From the NCBI GenBank assembly GCA_963705305.1, contig OY970067.1, positions 5,056,001 through 5,120,000 on the forward strand: a stretch of DNA of 64,000 bases, given 5' to 3'. The DNA comes from an uncultured Methylomirabilota bacterium (GTDB taxonomy: Bacteria; Methylomirabilota; Methylomirabilia; Methylomirabilales; 2-02-FULL-66-22). The position numbers were made by a program, and so were the translations under genes. Shown here in pieces: positions 15,386-24,639 of this stretch (within the stretch, counting starts at the first letter, position 1; each line of letters opens with the position of its first letter). The notes beneath the pieces are model-generated. The model did not search any database. It worked only from the letters and a program-made list of their open reading frames with translations, and was not told where the DNA came from.

Positions 15386-16498
15386 ATGAAGATCGCAGAC
15401 CTGCGGGCCGTTCTGGTTCGAATCCCCTTGCAAAACCCGGTGCGCATCGCCACCAGAGAGGTCACCGGGCGGGAGTTCGTCCTGGTGTTCCTGCGGGCGG
15501 AGGACGGAGCGGAGGGATTCGGCTACACCTATGCGGGCACTGTGGGGGGAACCATGGTCCGGGCCGCTATCCAGGATATCCTGGCCCCGCTGCTTGTCGG
15601 CGCCGACGCCGGACTGATCGAGCACCACTGGGCGGCGATGTTCCAGGAGGGGCTGCTGGTCGGCCGTCGGGGCGCCCTGCTCCGGGCCATCTCGGCCGTG
15701 GATATCGCCTTGTGGGACCTGGCGGCCAAGCGGGCCGGCCTGCCGCTCTACCGCCTGCTGGGAGGCTATCAGGCCGAGGTCCCGGCCTATGCCTCGGGGG
15801 GCTACTATCTGGCGGGCAAGGGCACCAATGGCCTGGCCGCAGAGATGGAGCGATACCTCCACGCCGGCTTTCAGAGTGTGAAGATCAAGGTCGGCGGGGC
15901 TCCCCTGGCGGAGGACGTGGCGCGCGTCCAGGCCGCCCGGAAGGCGATCGGTCCCGGCGTACGCCTGGCCCTGGACGCCAACAACGCCTACCGCAGCGTC
16001 GCCGAGGCCATCCGGGCGGCGCAGGCGTTCGAGCCGTTCGACATCTGGTGGTTCGAAGAGCCGCTGGCCCCCGACAATATCCCGGGGCATGCCGAGGTCG
16101 CAGCCGCCACGTCGATCCCCGTGGCCACCGGCGAGATCCACGCCAGCCGCTGGGATTTCCGCGACATCATCCTGGACGGGGCCGCGCAGATCCTCCAGCC
16201 GGATGCCGGCGTCCTGGGAGGCGTCAGCGAGTGGATGAAGGTCGCCCACGCCGCCGCGGCGTTCGATCTGCCCGTCGCCCCCCACTGGCACGCCGATCTC
16301 CACGCCCACCTGGTCGGGGCTGCGGCCAATGCCCTCACCGTGGAGTACTTCTTCCTGGAGGAGGACATCTACAACTTCGAGCGCATTCTTCGCGAGCGGC
16401 TCAGGCCCACGGCCGACGGCCGCTTGCCCATCCCCGACCGCCCCGGGCTGGGCCTGGTCCTGGACGAGGCGGCCATCGACCGGTTCGCGGTCCGCTAA
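15386..16498 (+). CDS. mandelate racemase/muconate lactonizing enzyme family protein
   Basis: SAVDIALWDL, KIK, LDAN, WFEEP, ATGE, LQPD. Confidence 0.9.
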   Translation: MKIADLRAVLVRIPLQNPVRIATREVTGREFVLVFLRAEDGAEGFGYTYAGTVGGTMVRAAIQDILAPLLVGADAGLIEHHWAAMFQEGLLVGRRGALLRAISAVDIALWDLAAKRAGLPLYRLLGGYQAEVPAYASGGYYLAGKGTNGLAAEMERYLHAGFQSVKIKVGGAPLAEDVARVQAARKAIGPGVRLALDANNAYRSVAEAIRAAQAFEPFDIWWFEEPLAPDNIPGHAEVAAATSIPVATGEIHASRWDFRDIILDGAAQILQPDAGVLGGVSEWMKVAHAAAAFDLPVAPHWHADLHAHLVGAAANALTVEYFFLEEDIYNFERILRERLRPTADGRLPIPDRPGLGLVLDEAAIDRFAVR

Positions 16499-16699
16499 GT
16501 GCTTAGCGGCCTAAATTCTACGACGTATCCATTGACCGCTTAACCTCCCGGTCCCCCGGGCCGGACCCGGGCTCGCCGGGTACCCATCCGGAGGATGGGT
16601 GTGGCGCGGCGTCTCGGGGCGGCCTGGGGGACCGGGATACGTCGCCGCGATTACGGCCAGGAGTACTAAGCGGGCGCTCGGGACGAGCCGGCCGACGCC

Positions 16700-17002
16700 T
16701 CACACCCCCAGCTTGGCCTGGACGCTGCGGACCTTGTCGGTCATCGTCTGCTCCCGGTCCGTGCGTGTGCCCAGCTTGATGACCGTCGAGATGCGGGGCG
16801 CGCCCATGGCGTGGACCGCCTCGTGGCAGCGCTTGATGGCGGCAAAGACGGCGTCCCACTCTCCCTCGACGTTGGTCCCGTAGGCGTGCAGCTGGGTCGT
16901 CAGACCGGCCTCGGCGAGAATCCGCTCGCACGCCGCCACGTAGGACGACACCGAGACGCCCACGCCCAGCGGAACCACGCACAGATCCACGATCGCCTTC
17001 AT
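16700..17002 (-). CDS. MTH1187/YkoF-like thiamine-binding family protein
   Basis: VDLCVVPLG, SVSSYVA, HAYGTNVEGEWD, GAPRI, GTRTDR. Confidence 0.9.
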   Translation of the reverse strand: MKAIVDLCVVPLGVGVSVSSYVAACERILAEAGLTTQLHAYGTNVEGEWDAVFAAIKRCHEAVHAMGAPRISTVIKLGTRTDREQTMTDKVRSVQAKLGV

Positions 17003-17012
17003 GCCGTTCTCC

Positions 17013-17537
17013 TCATGCTGTGGATGGATGGCTGGTCCCGGCGGTGGGGGGCGAAATCCACCGCACCACCCGGACCGGCGCCTGCCCGGGGCAGGCGGCG
17101 TGAAGCCGCCGCCGGAAGATCGAGGACGACGGCCGCCGGGGAAAGAAGACGAGATGCGCCCGGCACGCGCAGTCCGAGGCGCCGAAGTGCGGAACCGGAA
17201 TCGCGGCGCCGGGAGCCCGGCGAAACACCTCCGCCCAGGCGTGCTCGCGACGGATCGGATCGCGCGAGATCCAGGCCTCCCGCACCTCCGCCGCCGTGCG
17301 GAGATAATCGATGTGCCAATGCCGCCGCCGCAGCGTCCGGCGGTGGTGCGCGATCCTCGCCTCGATTCCGCCCGGTCCGAATGCACTCCCCACGTACACG
17401 TAAAAGCCCGGCCGGACCTCCATCACCCCCAGCCGGCCAATCTCGATCCGTGCGGCGGCAGGCGCGTGGAGAATCAGGGCGTACGTCCCGGTCCGGCTCG
17501 CCGCCGCGCGGACGGCCTCCTTCCCGGCACGCGGCAC
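17013..17537 (-). CDS. DUF123 / GIY-YIG (Uri) family nuclease
   Basis: GTYAL, GFYVYVGSAFG, HWHIDYL, FGASDCAC.AHL. Confidence 0.85.
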   Translation of the reverse strand: MPRAGKEAVRAAASRTGTYALILHAPAAARIEIGRLGVMEVRPGFYVYVGSAFGPGGIEARIAHHRRTLRRRHWHIDYLRTAAEVREAWISRDPIRREHAWAEVFRRAPGAAIPVPHFGASDCACRAHLVFFPRRPSSSIFRRRLHAACPGQAPVRVVRWISPPTAGTSHPSTA

Positions 17538-17540
17538 TTG

Positions 17541-17894
17541 CTACTCCTTCCGCATGGCCTCGATTTCGTTCAGGAATTCCAGGAGGTGCTCCCGGACGAT
17601 CACGAACGCCGGCCCGCCGCCAAATTCGACGCCGATGGCCGCCGCCTCGATCACCTCGTCCCGTTTGGCCCCGGCCGCGATGGCGTTGTAGGCATGGTTG
17701 GCCAGGCACTCCACGCAGCGCGTAGCGACCGAGGCCCCCACCGCCACCAGTTCCTTGTGCTTCCGCTGCAGGCTCCCGCAGCCGTAATACCGCTTCATGA
17801 GCTCGTTAAAGCCGTGGTACAGCGTTGGGGTTTCTTGCTCGAGGCGCTTCCAATCCTCCGCGCGCTGCCTGAGAATATCCCTCGCTTTTCTCAT
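17541..17894 (-). CDS. carboxymuconolactone decarboxylase/AhpD-like protein
   Basis: KHKELVAVG...RCVECLANH...GA..DEVIEA...FGGGPA; GGAGG RBS. Confidence 0.88.
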   Translation of the reverse strand: MRKARDILRQRAEDWKRLEQETPTLYHGFNELMKRYYGCGSLQRKHKELVAVGASVATRCVECLANHAYNAIAAGAKRDEVIEAAAIGVEFGGGPAFVIVREHLLEFLNEIEAMRKE

Positions 17895-18071
17895 GTGCGC
17901 CACCTCCCTGCCCCCCGACCCGTCCGGAACGTCGACCCGGGACACTGCCGCTCTGCCGTCCGACCCCGATGCTACTACAAAGCCCTCACGCTTTTCCAGT
18001 GGCATCGGCCGATCGTCCTCGCCTGCCGACCGACGGCTCGTCAACCCGGAGTATTCACGGCCGCGGCTCCC

Positions 18072-18132
18072 AGCCTTGAACCGAAAGAACTGTTGATCGC
18101 CATGACGCCAAGGGCACCCCTTTCAATTTCGA
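18072..18132 (+). repeat. copy of palindromic intergenic repeat, inverted relative to 20222-20283
   Basis: CGCCATGACGCCAAGGGCACCCCTTTCAATTTCGA identical to revcomp of 20222-20256, with further partial match. Confidence 0.85.
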
Positions 18133-18143
18133 AAGCGGTAATC

Positions 18144-19568
18144 TTACCCCCTCAGACTGCTGTCGAGGGCCGCCAGCGCCGCTCGGTACCCGCACATGCC
18201 GTGCACCCCGCCGCCGGGGGGCGTCGAGGCCGAGCACAGGTACACGCCTCCCAGCGGGGTCGCGTAGGGAACCGCCCGCAGCACGGGCCGCGCCAGGAGC
18301 TGGGAGAGATCCTGGAGACCGCCTCCGATGTCGCCGCCCACGTAGTTGGCGTTGTAGCGCTCCAGGTCGCACGGGAAGAAGGCGTGCCGGGCCAGGATCC
18401 GGCCGTGGAACCCGGGGGCAAACCGTTCGATCTGCGCCTCGATCCGAGAGGTCATGTCCACGGTCGATCCGTTGGGCACGTGACAGTACGCCCAGGCGGT
18501 CTGCTTTCCCTGGGGCGCCCGCCCGGGATCGAACAGGCTCGACTGGGCCAGGAGGACGAAGGGTCGCTCCGGGTGCTCTCCGCGGCTTACCGCCCCCTCG
18601 GCGGCGGCGATGTCGCGGAGCGTCCCGCCCAGATGGACCGTGGCCGCTCGCAGGCACTCGGCCGCCGCCCAGGGAATCGGCCCGTCCAGCGCGTAGTCCA
18701 GCTTGAACACGCCGGGCCCGTGCCGGTAGCGCGACAGCCGGCGCCGGTACTCCAGGGGCAGCCGATGACCCGCTAGCGAGAGGAACTGACCGGGCGACAC
18801 GTCGAGGAGCGCGGCCTGCGCGCCGGCCAGTTCGTCCAGCGACTCCACCCGCTTTTCGAAGACGACCTTGCCCCCCAGCGCGGAGAGGTACCCTGCCAGG
18901 GCGTCGGCGATCCGCTGCGATCCGCCGCGGGCCACCGGCCAGCCCGCGACGTGGCCGAGGATGCCCAGCACCAGTCCGCAGGCGGCGCTGAGCGGCTGCT
19001 CCAGCGAGAGCATGGAATGCGCGGCCAGACCCGCGAAGAGCGCTCGAGCCGGCTCATCTCGGAAGCGTCCCTCGGCCAGGCCCCGTGCGGATCGGATTCC
19101 CCGGACGCCGAACCGGGCCAGAGCCCAGGGATGGCGCGGCGGGCGCAGGAGGGGACCGAAGAGCATATCCGACAGCCGCTGCCAGGCGGCCGCCAGGGGC
19201 GCCATCAGTCGATGGTAGGCGGCGCCGTCCCGCCCCAGTCCCTGGGCCGTGGCCTCCACCGACGGCTTCAGCACCACCGCCGTGCCGTCATCCAGCGGAT
19301 GGGCCAGCGGCACGGGGGGATGGATCCACTCCAGTCCGTACTCGCGGAGGGGAAGACTGCGGAAGAAGGGCGAGGCCGCTCCTAGGGGGTGCACAGCGGA
19401 GCAGACGTCGTGGACGAACCCGGGCAGGGTGAGCTCCGCCGAGCGCATCCCGCCGCCGATTCGCTCGGCGGCCTCGTACACCAGGACCGAGCGCCCCGCG
19501 CGCGCCAGCGTGATGGCCGCCGCCAGCCCGTTCGGACCCGAGCCCACGACTACCGCTTCCGGTCGCAC
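18144..19568 (-). CDS. phytoene dehydrogenase-like FAD-dependent oxidoreductase
   Basis: VVGSGPNGLAAA, HDVCSAVHP, AWAYCHVP, STPPGGGVHGMCG. Confidence 0.9.
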   Translation of the reverse strand: MRPEAVVVGSGPNGLAAAITLARAGRSVLVYEAAERIGGGMRSAELTLPGFVHDVCSAVHPLGAASPFFRSLPLREYGLEWIHPPVPLAHPLDDGTAVVLKPSVEATAQGLGRDGAAYHRLMAPLAAAWQRLSDMLFGPLLRPPRHPWALARFGVRGIRSARGLAEGRFRDEPARALFAGLAAHSMLSLEQPLSAACGLVLGILGHVAGWPVARGGSQRIADALAGYLSALGGKVVFEKRVESLDELAGAQAALLDVSPGQFLSLAGHRLPLEYRRRLSRYRHGPGVFKLDYALDGPIPWAAAECLRAATVHLGGTLRDIAAAEGAVSRGEHPERPFVLLAQSSLFDPGRAPQGKQTAWAYCHVPNGSTVDMTSRIEAQIERFAPGFHGRILARHAFFPCDLERYNANYVGGDIGGGLQDLSQLLARPVLRAVPYATPLGGVYLCSASTPPGGGVHGMCGYRAALAALDSSLRG

Positions 19569-19723
19569 CCGCCCGACCCCTTCCCTCTCCGACGGAGAGA
19601 TAGACGCCTATCCCGCCGCTTTCTCCCCTTCGACAGGATGCCACTGGAGAGTCTCGGGAATCAACGGATATTTCGGGCGCCCCTGCCCGGGGATCAGCGG
19701 ACGGGCGCCCTGCCGCGAACCGC

Positions 19724-20125
19724 CTACGCCGCGAGTGCCCGGCCCGGCCGGTGCGCCGCCGCCCGCTCCGCGCGCAGCCTGGTCCCCCCGGAGTCTGGGT
19801 CCGGCCTGGGCGTCAGGATGACCTGGTACGTCTCCCCGTCGGAAAACACCCCGCACGCGGCGGCCAGGATGCCCGCAGTGATGTCCGGCCGGCTGAAGGG
19901 GACGCCAATCCGGACTCGCCAGGGGCCCCGGAGCGGCTTCTCTACCCACGGCGAGGCGACGGCGCCGAATCGTTCCTGGATTACGTCGGTCAGCGCGATC
20001 TGCCGACGAATCGCATCCTCCCGCCGCTTTCGACGGCTCCGGACCGCCAGCATCGGCAGGCCGATCCACAGGAACGCGTACAGCGACACAAGCATGATCC
20101 CGAACACGATCGAGCCGATATGCAT
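19724..20125 (-). CDS. hypothetical membrane-anchored protein
   Basis: N-terminal TM helix, GGAGGAG RBS. Confidence 0.6.
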   Translation of the reverse strand: MHIGSIVFGIMLVSLYAFLWIGLPMLAVRSRRKRREDAIRRQIALTDVIQERFGAVASPWVEKPLRGPWRVRIGVPFSRPDITAGILAAACGVFSDGETYQVILTPRPDPDSGGTRLRAERAAAHRPGRALAA

Positions 20126-20186
20126 GACCGCTCTCCTCCCCGCGCGGGTTCAGCCGACAGCGAATCCCAATCCGAGAACATCTCTC

Positions 20187-20283
20187 CGCCAAGGCACCAA
20201 GGGAAAATCCGAATTTCGAAATCGAAATTGAAAGGGGTGCCCTTGGCGTCATGGCGGTTGAGGAGCTCTTTCGGTGGAAGGCT
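20187..20283. repeat. hairpin repeat element
   Basis: CGCCAAGGCACCAAGG...CCTTGGCGTCATGGCG arms around a heptamer-rich loop. Confidence 0.75.
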
Positions 20284-20297
20284 CACGTCACCCGGTA

Positions 20298-20326
20298 TGA
20301 CACCGCGGGCAGGCTAGTGTGAAATG
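20298..20326 (-). promoter_or_regulatory. second copy of putative ECF promoter
   Basis: CATTTCACAC-N12-GGTGTCA; both boxes and spacing identical to 21816-21844. Confidence 0.6.
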
Positions 20327-21285
20327 GGATGAAGATCCGGCCGGCAGGTGGTGCAGGGGGTGAGGCCCGCCGCCTCCGCGTGTCCGCGGGACGCGAAGCG
20401 GGCGAGGGGGACGGATCGGCGCCCGGCGAGCGAGGGGCACGTCGGCAGGCAATATTCCCGGTCTCCCGGCACGAGGACGTACATCGCCTCGGAAACGATG
20501 CCAAGCCCGCCGCCGTGCCCGGTGGTGGGGACGCCCTCCATGGCCAGCAGCCGGCGCTTCAGGTCCACCTTGTGGCCGGCGTACCCGGTCAGGGCGCCGG
20601 AGCTTCCGATCACCCGGTGGCACGGGATCACGATCGGCAGGGGGTTCCAGCGAAGCGCCTGGGCCACGGCCCGCACGGCCGATGCTCGGCCGATTTCCTG
20701 GGCGATCCCGGCGTAGGATATCACGGCCCCGTACGGGAGGGCGGCCGTGGCCTGCAGGACCCGCCGGTGAAAGTCGCTCCGCACCAGGCGCAGGTCCAGC
20801 GACCAGTCCAGGTGCCGACGCCGGCCGTGCAGGTACTCCAGCAGATCCCGCTGGAGGGTCTCCAGCTCCCCGCCCCCTTCGACCATCTCCACGCCGGGCT
20901 CGCGGCCGAGGCGCGAGGAGCGCACACCCGCCCCCCGCTCGAGATACTCCACCAGCGCAATCCCCGTCTCCGACTGGGCGATCAGGATGGGCCCCAGGGG
21001 TGACGGGAAGATGCGATAGGCCAGCAGACGGCGGCGGAGGTCCGCCAGGCGCGTATCGAGCTGCTCGCGGGTCCGAGCCAGCGTCTCTTCCGGCAGCCGC
21101 GCCTCCCGAAGCGCGGCAACCGCCCCGTCCACCGCGCGGTAGGCCTGGTATTCCCGGCGGCAGGGGCCGCAGGTCTCCAGGTGCCTCTGCACCCGCTCGA
21201 CCGCGCCCGGCGGCGCCTCGCCCATGGCCGCGGCCAGCAGCTCCTCTGCAATTCGCCCGCATCCCGCCGGCTTCTTGCCCATCAT
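20314..21285 (-). CDS. fusion: zf-HC2 anti-sigma domain + methylated-DNA-protein-cysteine methyltransferase + C-terminal Ada-type Zn domain
   Basis: HLETCGPC (HxxxCxxC); SPLG, AVRAVAQAL..NP.PIVIPCHRVI; YCLPTC...AEAAGLTPCTTCRP. Confidence 0.9.
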   Translation of the reverse strand: MMGKKPAGCGRIAEELLAAAMGEAPPGAVERVQRHLETCGPCRREYQAYRAVDGAVAALREARLPEETLARTREQLDTRLADLRRRLLAYRIFPSPLGPILIAQSETGIALVEYLERGAGVRSSRLGREPGVEMVEGGGELETLQRDLLEYLHGRRRHLDWSLDLRLVRSDFHRRVLQATAALPYGAVISYAGIAQEIGRASAVRAVAQALRWNPLPIVIPCHRVIGSSGALTGYAGHKVDLKRRLLAMEGVPTTGHGGGLGIVSEAMYVLVPGDREYCLPTCPSLAGRRSVPLARFASRGHAEAAGLTPCTTCRPDLHPISH

Positions 21286-21806
21286 TGCGACTCCTCGGGA
21301 AGCAATCCATGGCCGTCCAGGGCCTGGCGGATCTTGCGCAGCGCCTGGAACACGTGCGCCCGGGCGCTCTCGGCCGAACAGCCCAGACTCCGTCCGATCG
21401 CCTCGTACTCCTGGCCGTGGACCTTCCGCTGCACGAAGGCCAGCCGCTGCTTGAGCGGCAGGCGCCGGATGACCCCCTCGGCCAGCGCGCCCGCCTCGCG
21501 GGAGAGCAGCCGCGCCTCTGCCCCGCCATCCCCCGACTCGCGAGTGGAAACGCGCACTGCGTCGTAGGCCCGGCGCCGCCGCGTCTCCGACCGGAAGTAA
21601 TTCTTGGCCAGGTTGGTGGCGATGGAGAACAGCCAGGCCCGGACGTTGGCACCGCTGGGGAGCGACCCGTACGCCCGAAAGGCGTGCAGGAAGGTCTCCT
21701 GTGACAGATCGTCGGCGTCCCCCGCCCGGCCGATCGCCCGCCGGAGATACCGGCAGATCTCCTCGTGGTGCGCCGATACAATGACTTCAAACGTCTCCTG
21801 GCCCAT
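21282..21806 (-). CDS. ECF sigma-70 factor
   Basis: DADDLSQETF, RAWLFSIATN, LPLKQR, YEAIGRSLGCSAESARAHV; 4-nt ATGA overlap with downstream gene. Confidence 0.92.
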   Translation of the reverse strand: MGQETFEVIVSAHHEEICRYLRRAIGRAGDADDLSQETFLHAFRAYGSLPSGANVRAWLFSIATNLAKNYFRSETRRRRAYDAVRVSTRESGDGGAEARLLSREAGALAEGVIRRLPLKQRLAFVQRKVHGQEYEAIGRSLGCSAESARAHVFQALRKIRQALDGHGLLPEESQ

Positions 21807-21815
21807 TATCCTGTG

Positions 21816-21844
21816 TGACACCGGACCTGCCCCGGTGTGAAATG
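21816..21844 (-). promoter_or_regulatory. putative autoregulatory ECF promoter, near-leaderless transcript
   Basis: CATTTCACAC-N12-GGTGTCA ending 9 nt before the sigma ATG. Confidence 0.65.
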
Positions 21845-21891
21845 AGGGGATGAAAAGCGCTCTCGACGTGCCTCGCCCGCCGGCCGGAACG

Positions 21892-23091
21892 TCAGGAAAG
21901 CAGGCGTGCCGCCGCGAGGGCATAAACGATGGTATGCGAATAGACCTCCTCCATCTCGACCCACTCGTCCGGGCCGTGGGATACCTCCAGGCGGCCCGGT
22001 CCGTACGCGAATGCCGGGATTCCCCGGCGCGCGTACCAGCGGGTCTCCAGGATGCCCGGGCACATGGCGAAGGCCGGCCGCGCGCCGGTCGCCGCCTGGA
22101 TGGTCTCGGCCAGAGCTGCGGCCGCCGGGTGATCCTCCGGGACGCCGCTGGAGTCCCCCTCCTGGAGCATCTCGATCTCCAGCGCGATGCCGCGGCGCCG
22201 GCTCTCCTCCAAGACCTCGAGAAGCCGCGCCTTTTCGGTGGCGAGATCCTCCTCGGGATTGAACCGCCTTTCCACGGTGAAGGAACAGCTCTCGGGGACC
22301 ACGTTGAAATTGGTCCCCCCCTCGACCCGCCCGCCCAGCATGAGGATCGATCCGGCCGCCTCGGGCGCGATGCGGTAGCCGGTCCGGCGGGTCTCCACCT
22401 CGGCCTTAACGGCCAAAAGATCCGTCGCCACGCGCAGCATCTGCTCGAACGCGTTGACGCCCTGGTGCTGCAGCCCGACGTGGGCCGCCCGGCCTTTCAC
22501 GGTGACGCGCAGGCTGACGGCCCCCCGGTTGGCGTTCCAGATGACGCCCCCGGTGGGCTCCGGCGTGAGCATGGCGACGGCGTCCCGTCCCAGCAGCCCG
22601 AGCCGATCCAGGTGGCCCGACCCGGCCCGGCCTCCGGTCTCCTCGTCGGCCACGATGCACAGGCCGATCCGGCCCTGCAGGGGAACCCCCAGCCGCTGCA
22701 GGAGGTGGGTTGCGTACAGCATGGCGGCCAGGCCCAGCTTCATGTCGGCGGACCCCCGGCCGACCAGCCGTCCCCCTTCCAGGCGCGGCTCGAACTGGTC
22801 GCGGCGGTGGGCCGGCACCACGTCATAGTGGCCGTGGAAATAGAGCGTGCGCCGGCCTTCGCCGGCGAAGCCGAGCAGGTTGTAGCCGGGGCGCCCGGGA
22901 GAGCCGGGCGCCTCGATGATCTGATACGCCAGCCCAAGGCGACCCAGCTCCAAGCGGATCCGGTCCGCGCACTCGCGGTAGCGGTTGCCCGGCGGATTCT
23001 CGCTGGCGATGCGGATGAGGTCCTGCCCCAGCGCCAGCAGGGGCTGCTTGCAGGACTCCAGGGCCTGCCTCAGCGCGCGTTGGAGGTCCAT
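21892..23091 (-). CDS. M20 ArgE/DapE-family deacylase
   Basis: HGHYDVVP, GRGSADMK, ADEETGG, GRAAH, NVVP, HGPDE. Confidence 0.9.
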   Translation of the reverse strand: MDLQRALRQALESCKQPLLALGQDLIRIASENPPGNRYRECADRIRLELGRLGLAYQIIEAPGSPGRPGYNLLGFAGEGRRTLYFHGHYDVVPAHRRDQFEPRLEGGRLVGRGSADMKLGLAAMLYATHLLQRLGVPLQGRIGLCIVADEETGGRAGSGHLDRLGLLGRDAVAMLTPEPTGGVIWNANRGAVSLRVTVKGRAAHVGLQHQGVNAFEQMLRVATDLLAVKAEVETRRTGYRIAPEAAGSILMLGGRVEGGTNFNVVPESCSFTVERRFNPEEDLATEKARLLEVLEESRRRGIALEIEMLQEGDSSGVPEDHPAAAALAETIQAATGARPAFAMCPGILETRWYARRGIPAFAYGPGRLEVSHGPDEWVEMEEVYSHTIVYALAAARLLS

Positions 23092-23098
23092 ACTGCTG

Positions 23099-23455
23099 TC
23101 ACCTCACCCGCCGGCGGCGCGCCGGGGATTTCGTGCCCGGCGCCCCCGCCGGACTCTTTCGCCTGCGACGCCGGGTGCTGGCCCGCTTGGCGGGCCCGAC
23201 CTTCCAGGCCACCACGCCCAGCACGAACAGCAGCCCGTAGGCGGCGCGGACGAGCGTCCACGTCTCCCAGCGGAGCGAATACTGCGCCACGATCGCCACC
23301 GCCCAGACCAGGAGGAACTGCAGCGCGGCCGCCACACCCACGAACGGATGGCCGGCAACCGACCGCAGGGCCAGCCGGATCCCGACCCATCCGAGCAGTG
23401 CGACGACGAGGCTCTCGCCGAGCAGTTCCAGGAGCTGCCAGGTCACGTCTGCCAC
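23099..23455 (-). CDS. hypothetical membrane protein
   Basis: three hydrophobic segments and a basic tail (...TWQLLELLGESLVVALLGW...); start uncertain. Confidence 0.6.
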   Translation of the reverse strand: MADVTWQLLELLGESLVVALLGWVGIRLALRSVAGHPFVGVAAALQFLLVWAVAIVAQYSLRWETWTLVRAAYGLLFVLGVVAWKVGPAKRASTRRRRRKSPAGAPGTKSPARRRRVR

Positions 23456-23679
23456 CTCGTCCCTCGCTTGCCAGGGTGACGCAGTTGCTCTTATTACCCT
23501 TTCGGGTCCCCCAGGCCTGCGGGCCTTGTCTGCCCTCGACCTTCCGGGAGGAGGCGCCGCCGGGGGGAACGCCCCCTGCCGCAAGGCGGCGGGGGGCGCC
23601 GGAGTCTTTGGATGACGGCTGGTCAGGGGCTCGGGCGTTTCTCTCGAGAAGGAGCAGGACCGGTCCTGCCGGGCGCTCC

Positions 23680-24639
23680 CTACTCCTCCTCGAACACCCC
23701 CATGCGCCGGAATTTTCGGTAGCGCTCTTCCAGGAGCGTGTCGGTGGGAACCGCCAGCAGGCGCTGGAAGGCCGCGACGAGGACCTCCTTGAGGGTGGCC
23801 GCCATCTCTTGATGGTTGCGGTGGGCGCCGCCCACCGGCTCGGGCACGATGGCGTCCACCAGCCCAAGACGCTTGAGGGTGTCGGCGGTGATGCCCATGG
23901 CGGCGGCCGCTTCGGGGGCCTTGGCCGGGTCCCGCCAGAGGATGGAGGCGCATCCCTCGGGCGAGATGACCGAGTAGATGGCGTACTCCAGCATCAGCAC
24001 GGTATCCCCCACGGCGATCCCCAGCGCGCCCCCCGAGCCCCCCTCTCCTGTGATGGCGACCACCACGGGCGTGCGGAGCAACGTCATCTCGCGGAGGTTC
24101 CGGGCGATGGCCTCGGCCTGCCCCCGCTCCTCCGCGCCGATGCCGGGGTAGGCGCCGGGCGTGTCCACCAGGGTCAGGATCGGCCGGTGGAACTTTTCCG
24201 CCAGCTTCATGAGCCGCAGGGCCTTGCGGTAGCCCTCGGGGTTGGCCATGGCGAAGTTCCGGGCCAATTTTTCTTTGGTGTCTCTTCCCTTCTGCTGTCC
24301 GATCACGACCAGGGGCATGCCGTCCAGGCGGGCCGGCCCGCCGACGATGGCCCGGTCGTCCCGGAAGGCGCGGTCCCCGTGCAGCTCCAGGAAGTCGGTG
24401 AGGAGCAGCCGGATGTAATCCATGGTGTACGGCCGCTGAGGGTGCCGGGCGATCTGGGTGCGCTGCCAGGGGCTGAGGCGGGCGAAGATCTCCTGCTGAA
24501 GGCGCGAGACCTTGCGCTCCAGACGCGCGATCTCGCCGGTGAAGTCCACCTGCTCGACCTGGGCGACCTGCTTCAACTCCTGGATCTTCTGCTCCAGCTC
24601 CAGGATCGGCCGCTCGAACTCCAGCGTGTAGGTCGGCAT
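23680..24639 (-). CDS. accA: acetyl-CoA carboxylase carboxyltransferase alpha
   Basis: [43 protein letters not shown]. Confidence 0.97.

Follow-up and report, generated by a model that had tools for sequence, protein, structure and literature searches.

Within the 64,000-nt stretch of DNA analysed here (the window), downstream of an ECF sigma factor gene lies the gene for a 323-aa protein in which a predicted zinc anti-sigma domain (ZAS), a complete Ogt-type alkyltransferase and a truncated Ada-type zinc domain are fused. On balance, the reading favoured is that suicide alkylation of this anti-sigma protein would free the sigma factor, which would then replace the spent repair protein; we infer both the binding and the release. 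Together with the gene for a 133-aa membrane protein (TM133), the sigma and fusion genes form a three-gene cassette that is new with the present analysis. Both genes, the predicted promoters P1 and P2, a palindromic repeat and TM133 are all located on the minus strand, as follows (evidence in brackets).

21816..21842, minus strand: P1, predicted ECF-type promoter (exact pattern match, conservation, PWM)
21282..21806, minus strand: ECF sigma factor gene, 174 aa plus stop codon (Pfam, NCBIfam, upstream orthologs)
20314..21285, minus strand: fusion gene, 323 aa, apparently soluble product (ORF and domain profiles)
21028..21285, minus strand: fusion residues 1-86, predicted zinc anti-sigma domain C9-x25-H35-x3-C39-x2-C42, four helices (profiles, AF2, conservation)
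20527..21027, minus strand: fusion residues 87-253, complete Ogt/AGT alkyltransferase, N and C domains (PF02870, PF01035, TIGR00589)
20314..20526, minus strand: fusion residues 254-323 plus stop codon, truncated Ada-type Zn domain with C279, C283, C311 and C314 (PF02805, 1adn)
20298..20324, minus strand: P2, second copy of the predicted promoter motif (exact pattern match, PWM)
20170..20283, minus strand: dispersed palindromic repeat, leader between P2 and TM133 (genome matches, hairpin)
19724..20125, minus strand: TM133, 133-aa single-pass membrane protein (synteny, hydropathy)

The ORF list and the sequence place the end of the sigma ORF at 21282 and the start of the 323-aa ORF at 21285, so the two genes overlap by the 4-nt ATGA, as a preliminary description of this DNA had stated. 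The longest sigma frame extends to 21923; the ATG at 21806, from which the description had begun the 174-aa protein, was upheld by ortholog alignments and by the position of the promoter motif. Pfam identified Sigma70_r2 and Sigma70_r4_2 on the sigma factor and nothing else, and the NCBIfam model sigma70-ECF (TIGR02937) gave 72.8 bits (cut-off 42.9).

The proposed linkage of this architecture to an ECF sigma factor held in every locus in which it could be tested. In 12/12 loci from relatives the gene just upstream of the fusion is a sigma ortholog (65-79% identity), a sigma gene stands immediately 5' of the fusion in 17/17 named three-domain loci, and one is found directly upstream in all five metagenomic ZAS-bearing loci with upstream DNA (four ZAS-Ogt, one three-domain). 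The cassette is common in Rokubacteria/Methylomirabilota (88 of the 151 genomes sampled), and synteny among same-genus loci is restricted to sigma, fusion and TM133. An Rfam search of 16000-24000 found nothing at E values of up to 1, and a scan of 19500-22100 for sigma-70 promoters and terminators returned 0 promoter-like and 0 terminator-like sites.

The central part of the fusion carries what is, by its sequence, a complete Ogt and predicted alkyltransferase. Pfam Methyltransf_1N (PF02870) matched residues 89-165 (E 1.7e-4), DNA_binding_1 (PF01035) matched residues 171-252 (E 3.5e-29), and TIGR00589 scored 95.2 bits vs 46.4. Profile matches in the PDB included M. tuberculosis Ogt (3.7e-41) and E. 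coli Ada-C (2.8e-40); Foldseek aligned the fusion model with 1sfe (2.9e-11, TMt 0.85), and VIA gave Z values of 17.1-17.7 to alkyltransferases over 150-163 residues. The PCHR codons occupy 20614-20625, with Cys222 at 20620-20622. An intact PCHR methyltransferase had been proposed for the centre of the protein, and both Ogt profiles agree with this; PCHR is kept in 36/36 three-domain relatives, in which N214 and E250 are also invariant and Y191 and R205 are kept in 35 of the 36.

The N-terminal domain is predicted to be a zinc anti-sigma domain. The motif described there earlier was recovered as C9, H35, C39 and C42, with Pfam zf-HC2 (PF13490) on residues 9-43 above its cut-off by a marginal 22.9 vs 22.2 bits. 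Profile matches were obtained to RsiW (a likewise marginal E of 9.5e-4), DdvA, ChrR (E 0.057 over residues 15-83), RslA and RsrA, and the RsrA NCBIfam model matched weakly. In the AF2 model of the fusion (pLDDT 90.2) the domain comprises four helices (7-20, 26-36, 40-61 and 66-86), directly followed by the first strand of the Ogt N-domain. Immediately behind the Ogt/AGT/ATL chains, the structural search ranked four anti-sigma domains solved together with their sigma factors, at VIA Z values that are middling for helical folds (RslA 6.2, MucA 5.9 and 5.5 for two entries, RsiW 5.7); the RsiW alignment covered 69/69 residues. It is through this modelled domain, we infer, that the fusion would bind its sigma factor. 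The protein looks soluble, as had been suggested, with a maximum Kyte-Doolittle 19-residue mean of 1.26 vs 2.24 for TM133.

Twelve motif residues do not vary in any of the 36 three-domain relatives, even at 30% identity: the ZAS ligands, the PCHR residues and the four cysteines of the Ada-type site. Because of this invariance the architecture is not due to chance, and both acceptor sites are therefore maintained by selection, together with the anti-sigma motif. Relatives bear the names Rokubacteria, Methylomirabilota or Binatia.

RsrA senses through its zinc thiols and is released when thiols are oxidised or alkylated, and the ZAS cysteines of the fusion could themselves be the sensor by analogy. 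The ZAS would then respond to oxidants or electrophiles via C9, C39 and C42, and the Ogt and Ada-type domains would be co-expressed repair cargo. The full C...H-x3-C-x2-C motif is invariant, and the N-terminal domain aligns with RsrA cysteine for cysteine and matches the RsrA NCBIfam model weakly. RsrA-SigR of Streptomyces coelicolor (5frf) likewise has a soluble ZAS with these ligands; RsrA is, however, a single domain, whereas in the fusion the ZAS is followed by repair domains of some 240 residues. In many ZAS domains, RsiW and ChrR among them, the zinc is purely structural, and the ZAS ligands of the fusion are no more strictly conserved than PCHR and the Ada-type cysteines. Pairing of sigma with Ogt also persists in relatives that lack the zinc ligands: homologous sigmas precede an Ogt with a zinc-ligand-less or single-helix N-terminal extension in 37/80 metagenome and 12/62 named loci, and PCHR is retained in every one of these sigma-linked Ogt proteins. 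Since the sigma factor stays paired with Ogt when the zinc ligands are lost, its constant partner is Ogt and not the zinc site. An RsrA-type thiol switch is accordingly considered unlikely, although it is the strongest of the alternatives weighed here.

The C-terminal domain matched Pfam Ada_Zn_binding (PF02805) over residues 276-317 at 23.8 bits (cut-off 23). Profile positions 25-65 of 65 are covered, against 23-65 when the whole genome was searched, the first third being missing, and the 1adn (N-Ada10) profile matched at 4.4e-7. C279, C283, C311 and C314 align to C38, C42, C69 and C72 of Ada and are invariant in 36/36 relatives; the Ada-type zinc domain proposed earlier is thus present with its four cysteines, in truncated form. 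Pfam domain positions likewise agree with the ZAS, Ogt and Ada-Zn order previously described as reversed relative to Ada, and the reported lack of an AraC HTH was confirmed by Pfam and NCBIfam scans, which found no HTH family on the fusion. The Ada equivalog match covers only the C-terminal half of that model (95.7 bits against a cut-off of 345). A whole-genome search found no Ada_Zn domain joined to an HTH, and both Ada_Zn matches in the genome sit C-terminal to Ogt domains.

In Ada, Cys38 and Cys321 are the methyl acceptors, self-methylation is the signal and the protein's own gene is induced. Escherichia coli Ada (1adn, 1u8b, 1sfe) and the fusion have both methyl-acceptor modules in common, the zinc site with four cysteines and the PCHR domain of Ogt type; the fusion differs in the reversed domain order, the absence of the AraC HTH and the loss of the first third of the zinc domain. 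The output differs as well, since Ada activates promoters directly whereas the fusion would act via a sigma factor. An Ada-like DNA switch was nevertheless considered, in which methylation of Cys279 would raise the DNA binding of the fusion, which at P1 and P2 would serve as activator or as tether for bound sigma/RNAP. The alignment of the four cysteines with those of Ada speaks for such a switch, as does weak structural similarity to 1u8b, a complex of methylated N-Ada with DNA. It is made very improbable by the missing HTH and first third of the Ada domain, and by the ZAS-Ogt relatives without an Ada-type domain, which are also sigma-linked (4/4 two-domain loci with upstream DNA). In addition, P1 and P2 resemble ECF promoters and not the Ada box consensus.

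P1 has the sequence TTTCACAC-N12-GGTGTCA, i.e. TTTCAC-N17-GTC, and its 3' end lies some 10 nt upstream of the sigma ATG. It is an exact pattern match where 0 were expected by chance. The motif occurs upstream of sigma in 11/11 same-genus loci and was read by eye in all 16 of the named three-domain loci checked (L032 not included). P2 is also an exact match, with its -35 within the last fusion codons and its -10 just past the stop codon; it is kept in 10/11 same-genus loci and lost only where TM133 is also missing. No further exact copy of the motif exists in the genome. A PWM derived solely from relatives also ranked P1 and P2 above every other site of the 5.6-Mb genome, P2 scoring 33.2 bits (best) and P1 27.5 bits (second); other sites reached at most 20.5 bits, the top two of them lying within high-GC3 reading frames. 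From these sequence data P1 and P2 are predicted to be promoters of the adjoining sigma factor. The PWM scan of the genome placed no alkA- or alkB-type or other alkylation-repair target in the predicted regulon. The regulon is predicted to feed back onto the sigma-fusion operon, which, like the sigma gene immediately upstream and the invariant acceptor and ligand cysteines, is consistent with an alkylation-sensing anti-sigma factor. Newly described here is the recurrence of a single ECF-type motif, once ahead of the sigma gene and once at the fusion stop codon.

TM133 is predicted to be a second target of the sigma factor. It lies downstream of the fusion in 10/11 same-genus and 12/17 named loci, and in one same-genus genome P2 and TM133 have been lost together. 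The TM133 genes have GGAGG ribosome-binding sites, and residues Q42, T46, D47, G54, P59, V61 and W69 are invariant. The hydropathy maximum of 2.24 (Kyte-Doolittle 19-residue mean) is at residue 3. No Pfam family matched TM133, the Atlas gave hypothetical clusters only, from Methylomirabilota, and a word-based homolog search returned 5 proteins. Foldseek gave no match to the TM133 model (pLDDT 86) at E <= 0.001. The palindromic repeat at 20170..20283 has 42 matches in the genome, with an inverted copy at 18072-18132, and is predicted to fold into a hairpin of -49.7 kcal/mol (z -3.6). It is missing from the equivalent position in orthologous loci and is an insertion outside the conserved cassette.

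According to PMC10779285, alkyl transfer destabilises alkyltransferases, disrupts the interface of the N and C domains and leads to degradation in several organisms. In the favoured reading, in which alkylation frees the sigma factor, sigma and fusion would be co-transcribed and the fusion would hold sigma through its N-terminal domain. Irreversible alkyl transfer to Cys222, and possibly also to Cys279, would likely destabilise the fusion, and unfolding or proteolysis of the Ogt part would release sigma. Once free, sigma would transcribe from P1 and P2, promoters of nearly identical sequence (TTTCAC-N17-GTC). Since P1 fronts sigma's own operon, the used-up repair protein would be replaced, and induction would end as fresh, unalkylated anti-sigma built up; P2, at the fusion stop codon, would drive the small conserved membrane protein TM133. 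The circuit would measure consumption of a stoichiometric repair reagent, without an Ada/AraC-type activator. Against this reading count the marginal profile scores and middling Z values behind the anti-sigma assignment, the loss of the first third of the Ada-type domain, and a predicted regulon in which no further alkylation-repair gene appears.

Plain dosage feedback would have the anti-sigma only titrate sigma to a steady level of repair protein, alkylation leaving binding unchanged. Predicted autoregulation of the operon and translational coupling of sigma and anti-sigma through the ATGA would fit such an arrangement. A 1:1 co-translated inhibitor without a release signal would, however, keep sigma permanently off, and unchanged binding seems unlikely because alkylated alkyltransferases are destabilised (PMC10779285). 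Dosage feedback is therefore regarded as improbable.

Release by modification of a sensor domain has a counterpart in ChrR, in which modification of the C-terminal sensor domain, a cupin responsive to singlet oxygen, leads to loss of the anti-sigma. ChrR-RpoE of Rhodobacter sphaeroides (2q1z/2z2s), like the fusion, has a soluble cytoplasmic ZAS followed by a C-terminal sensor domain; where the sensor of ChrR is a cupin, that of the fusion would be a suicide DNA-repair enzyme.

The preliminary description knew of no characterised example. None has been characterised, and this part stands; the linkage of ECF sigma factors to Ogt and to Ada_Zn is nonetheless already catalogued as groups ECF122 and ECF203, in which the gene for an O6-methylguanine methyltransferase is at +1 to the sigma gene (Casas-Pastor et al. 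2021, PMC7826278). In the supplement of that paper the context of ECF203 also includes Ada_Zn_binding, and both groups are 100% Actinobacteria and described without an anti-sigma factor; in PMC8999054 they are filed under 'unknown mechanism'. The present locus shares with them the Ogt gene at sigma +1. It differs from their supplementary description, which has no anti-sigma, in carrying ZAS, Ogt and Ada-type site in one chain and in its host, a member of Methylomirabilota. The ECF-Ogt link is in print in these sources. No paper on an anti-sigma-alkyltransferase (Ogt) fusion was found in literature searches of journals other than subscription journals.

The promoter motif given for ECF122 in the same supplement has CTCAC at -35 and CGTCTAC at -10. 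Both elements are similar to those of the predicted TTTCAC-N17-GTC(A/T)TA here, the spacing of which is one base shorter. The published motif was seen upstream of Actinobacteria-type sigma-Ogt loci, in which the sigma-linked Ogt has no anti-sigma domain. At such loci Ogt may be a mere output of the sigma factor, and the same is possible for the present locus. A quick tree of 83 sigmas, with four outgroup paralogs only, had a basal support of 13 and neither joined nor separated the Rokubacterial and actinobacterial Ogt-linked sigmas. A sigma paralog from the window's own genome scores 2.2e-39 with the same profile as these sigmas.

More tentatively, and a little short of probable, the anti-sigma may be a suicide enzyme in the strict sense, each alkyl group irreversibly spending one anti-sigma and freeing one sigma. 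Repair events would then be counted and the used protein rebuilt exactly, without an Ada-type activator, and the 'missing' anti-sigma of ECF122 and ECF203 would be accounted for in the same way.

If the favoured reading is true, self-inactivating catalysis would be the signal, a new input logic for anti-sigma factors that contrasts with membrane-initiated proteolysis, partner switching and thiol oxidation. The two ECF groups filed as 'unknown mechanism' (ECF122 and ECF203) would gain a testable mechanism, and the system is small, with two proteins and a 27-nt promoter, and should be tractable in E. coli. It would also provide bacteria with a second, Ada-independent route to an adaptive alkylation response, and would explain the regulation of alkylation repair in a widespread, uncultured soil phylum.

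The preliminary description had placed an ECF sigma factor gene in overlap (ATGA) with the gene for a 323-aa soluble protein, here called the fusion, with an N-terminal HxxxCxxC zinc anti-sigma (ZAS) motif, a central methyltransferase with intact PCHR, a C-terminal Ada-type zinc domain and no AraC HTH. The gene overlap, the Pfam and NCBIfam content and the hydropathy confirm this in every particular. The features are:

21282-21806, minus strand: sigma gene, 174 aa counted from the conserved ATG
20314-21285, minus strand: fusion gene, 323 aa, ATGA overlap with the sigma gene
Fusion residues 9-43: zf-HC2 (Pfam), 22.9 bits against a cut-off of 22.2
Fusion residues 89-165: Methyltransf_1N (Pfam)
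Fusion residues 171-252: DNA_binding_1 (Pfam, 3.5e-29), containing PCHR
Fusion residues 276-317: Ada_Zn_binding (Pfam), 23.8 bits against a cut-off of 23, profile positions 25-65 of 65

Sigma70_r2 and Sigma70_r4_2 are the only Pfam domains of the sigma factor, which passed the NCBIfam sigma70-ECF model. The four Pfam matches in the fusion were all above cut-off, and no HTH family was listed for it in the Pfam scan. Its hydropathy maximum was 1.26 versus 2.24 for the adjoining membrane protein (threshold for comparison, 1.6), by which the fusion looks soluble.

PDB sequences were searched with a profile (A5) built from 36 three-domain relatives. Residues 87-249 matched M. tuberculosis Ogt (3.7e-41) and the E. 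coli Ada C-terminal domain (2.8e-40), residues 269-318 matched N-Ada10 (4.4e-7), and residues 7-83 matched the anti-sigma factors RsiW (9.5e-4), DdvA (0.012), ChrR (0.057), RslA (0.078) and RsrA (0.12). In pairwise alignments Ada C38, C42, C69 and C72 corresponded to C279, C283, C311 and C314 of the fusion, and the RsrA ligand positions to C9, H35, C39 and C42. All eight of these residues, together with P221-C222-H223-R224, N214 and E250, were invariant in 36/36 relatives at 30-74% identity, while Y191 and R205 were kept in 35 of the 36. The roles of N214, E250, Y191 and R205 are presumed from human AGT.

The AlphaFold2 model of the fusion was confident (pLDDT 90.2, pTM 0.74). It begins with four helices (7-20, 26-36, 40-61 and 66-86), and the Ogt N-domain follows with its first strand without a break. 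Using VIA-align, the Ogt part gave Z 17-18, and after the alkyltransferase (Ogt/AGT/ATL) chains the next four matches were RslA (Z 6.2), MucA (5.9 and 5.5) and RsiW (5.7, aligning 69/69 residues). All four fell within model residues 6-83 and are anti-sigma domains solved with their sigma factors; Z values of 5.5-6.2 are middling for a helical domain.

The nearest database proteins were about 322 aa long and bore no name beyond methylated-DNA-protein-cysteine methyltransferase; where an organism was tagged, it was a member of Methylomirabilales or NC10, 'Candidatus Acidoferrum' or, once, a Zetaproteobacteria MAG. Among 21 genomes of the same genus, own genome included, 11 had full-length orthologs, and a phylum-wide sample of 151 genomes had them in 88 (E <= 1e-40), distributed by family as f9 76/93, f10 10/11, f1 1/7 besides the own genome, f7 0/18 and f4 0/12. 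The titles of 17 named three-domain records were Rokubacteria or Methylomirabilota, except for two Binatia, one Baltobacteraceae and three without a taxon. Linkage of the architecture to ECF sigma factors was examined, and the sigma gene was the immediate upstream neighbor in 12/12 relatives' loci and 17/17 named loci. The gene for a 133-aa membrane protein (TM133) came next after the fusion in 10/11 same-genus and 12/17 named loci. Only sigma, fusion and TM133 are syntenic, forming a clade-wide cassette; the flanking M20 peptidase, FAD oxidoreductase, carboxymuconolactone-decarboxylase-family (CMD) and DUF123 genes were not conserved in relatives. The DUF123 and CMD genes lie downstream of the cassette (17013-18044, minus strand), without synteny in relatives.

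19724-20125, minus strand: TM133 gene
20170-20283 (minus) and 18072-18132 (plus): palindromic dispersed repeat, about 110 nt

The TM133 family comprises hypothetical proteins restricted to Methylomirabilota. Its members have a single membrane helix near the N-terminus, share the invariant motif RQI.(L/V)TDA and contain a small beta-alpha-beta domain. The C-termini end in LAA, AAA or IAA, alternatively in SWT, which we take to be reminiscent of protease degrons. The repeat looks MITE- or REP-like: it matched the 5.6-Mb genome 42 times and Rfam not at all, and its fold is a long hairpin (-49.7 kcal/mol, z -3.6). In the leader, a copy separates promoter P2 (see below) from TM133, and an inverted copy lies 2.1 kb away; the pair flanks TM133 and the FAD oxidoreductase gene.

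The motif TTTCACAC-N12-GGTGTCA occurred twice in the window (chance expectation 0), with no further copy elsewhere in the 5.6-Mb genome.

21816-21842, minus strand: predicted promoter P1, ending about 10 nt ahead of the sigma start codon
20298-20324, minus strand: predicted promoter P2, -35 within the last fusion codons and -10 directly past the stop

TTTCAC-N17-GTC stood at the P1 position in 11/11 same-genus loci, and the P1 arrangement was read by eye in 16/16 named three-domain loci checked (locus L032 left out). P2 was retained in 10/11 same-genus loci, the sole loss being in a genome also without TM133. A weight matrix built from the core positions of relatives alone ranked P2 first in the genome (33.2 bits) and P1 second (27.5 bits); the third-best site (20.5 bits) lay within a high-GC3 reading frame. 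A scan of 19500-22100 gave neither a promoter of sigma-70 type nor an intrinsic terminator. We infer that P1 and P2 are the sigma factor's own predicted promoters, and therefore that the predicted regulon is the sigma/anti-sigma operon plus TM133.

Pairing of sigma with Ogt is broad and already catalogued, as seen from ECF122, plain-Ogt loci and metagenome loci. In the ECF reclassification (PMC7826278) the ECF-Ogt link is absent from the main text and present in the supplement, where ECF122 is 100% actinobacterial and lacks a putative anti-sigma factor; its conserved +1 gene encodes a 6-O-methylguanine methyltransferase, and its promoter is predicted to contain CTCAC and CGTCTAC. A 2022 review (PMC8999054) lists ECF122 under 'unknown mechanism'. 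Both systems place Ogt at +1 of sigma, whereas the fusion adds a ZAS domain and ECF122, as described there, has no anti-sigma factor. A quick sigma tree, poorly supported at its base, neither joined this sigma to ECF122 nor set it apart, and the sigma profile also gave a good score to an ordinary paralog in the own genome (see below). The actinobacterial arrangement was seen in 12/62 named plain-Ogt loci, from Solirubrobacterales, Saccharomonospora, Flexivirga and others: the gene just before an Ogt that has no HxxxCxxC encodes a homologous sigma (29-38% identity), and CTCAC(G/A)-N16-17-CGT(C/T) preceded the sigma in 11 of these 12. Among 80 metagenome Ogt loci a homologous sigma was upstream in 42 and HxxxCxxC present in 7; of the latter, all five with upstream DNA had the sigma and two start at a contig edge. 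Sigma-linked Ogts without zinc ligands carried a degenerate anti-sigma-like N-terminal extension or a single helix matching helix 4, and all kept PCHR. In the sigma-linked Ogt of metagenome locus L115 (1839-2525, plus strand) the region of the ZAS motif can be aligned to the extension, with W/K/Q for H/C/C, and the extension appears to be a zinc-free anti-sigma-like domain. The literature that could be searched does not describe an Ogt with a bona fide ZAS domain, an arrangement by which Ogt would be the anti-sigma factor; the accessible text of a 2023 alkyltransferase review (PMC10779285) gives EndoV and histone-like fusions and does not use the word 'sigma'.

Another Ogt of the own genome also ends in an Ada-type zinc domain but has no ZAS (C1:129150-130010; L027 793-1656, plus strand), with no sigma gene in the roughly 800 nt read upstream; Ogt followed by AdaZn therefore exists in this lineage as a module that stands by itself. 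The representative library holds similar proteins, about 270 aa long (P0175, P0215, P0220, P0222 and P0242). The closest paralogous ECF sigma also scores 2.2e-39 with the sigma profile (C1:3104476-3105650; L191 677-1850, plus strand) and has as its downstream partner a ZAS anti-sigma factor of the ordinary, membrane-anchored kind (HLDRCPRC), in contrast to the soluble fusion.

Beyond anatomy and conservation, we infer the mechanistic steps, namely binding, promoter use and release. On balance we lean towards the fusion being a consumption sensor, in which alkyl transfer would free sigma. Sigma would be held by the N-terminal domain; alkyl would pass irreversibly to Cys222, and perhaps a phosphotriester methyl to Cys279. 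Alkylated alkyltransferases lose stability, open the N/C-domain interface and are degraded, according to the 2023 review (PMC10779285). Unfolding or proteolysis of Ogt could plausibly free sigma, since helix 4 of the anti-sigma domain runs on into the Ogt N-domain in the AlphaFold2 model. An RsrA-type thiol switch at the zinc site, whose ligands are invariant, is unlikely; Ogt is favored as the sensor because invariance is equally complete at the acceptor cysteines and sigma-Ogt pairing outlives the loss of the zinc ligands. Ogt is favored also because no Ada_Zn domain is joined to an HTH in the own genome, its only two Ada_Zn matches, in the fusion and in the stand-alone paralog, both being C-terminal to Ogt; an Ada-like DNA switch, despite the Ada-aligned cysteines, we consider highly improbable. 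As a counter-point, in Actinobacteria Ogt may simply be a product of sigma. Plain dosage feedback of the operon on itself seems distinctly improbable. Under the consumption sensor, freed sigma would transcribe its own operon and the spent protein would be replaced. The cassette would thus be an ECF/ZAS anti-sigma pair with a suicide repair enzyme as its predicted sensor domain, and its promoter logic is predicted to be self-replenishing.
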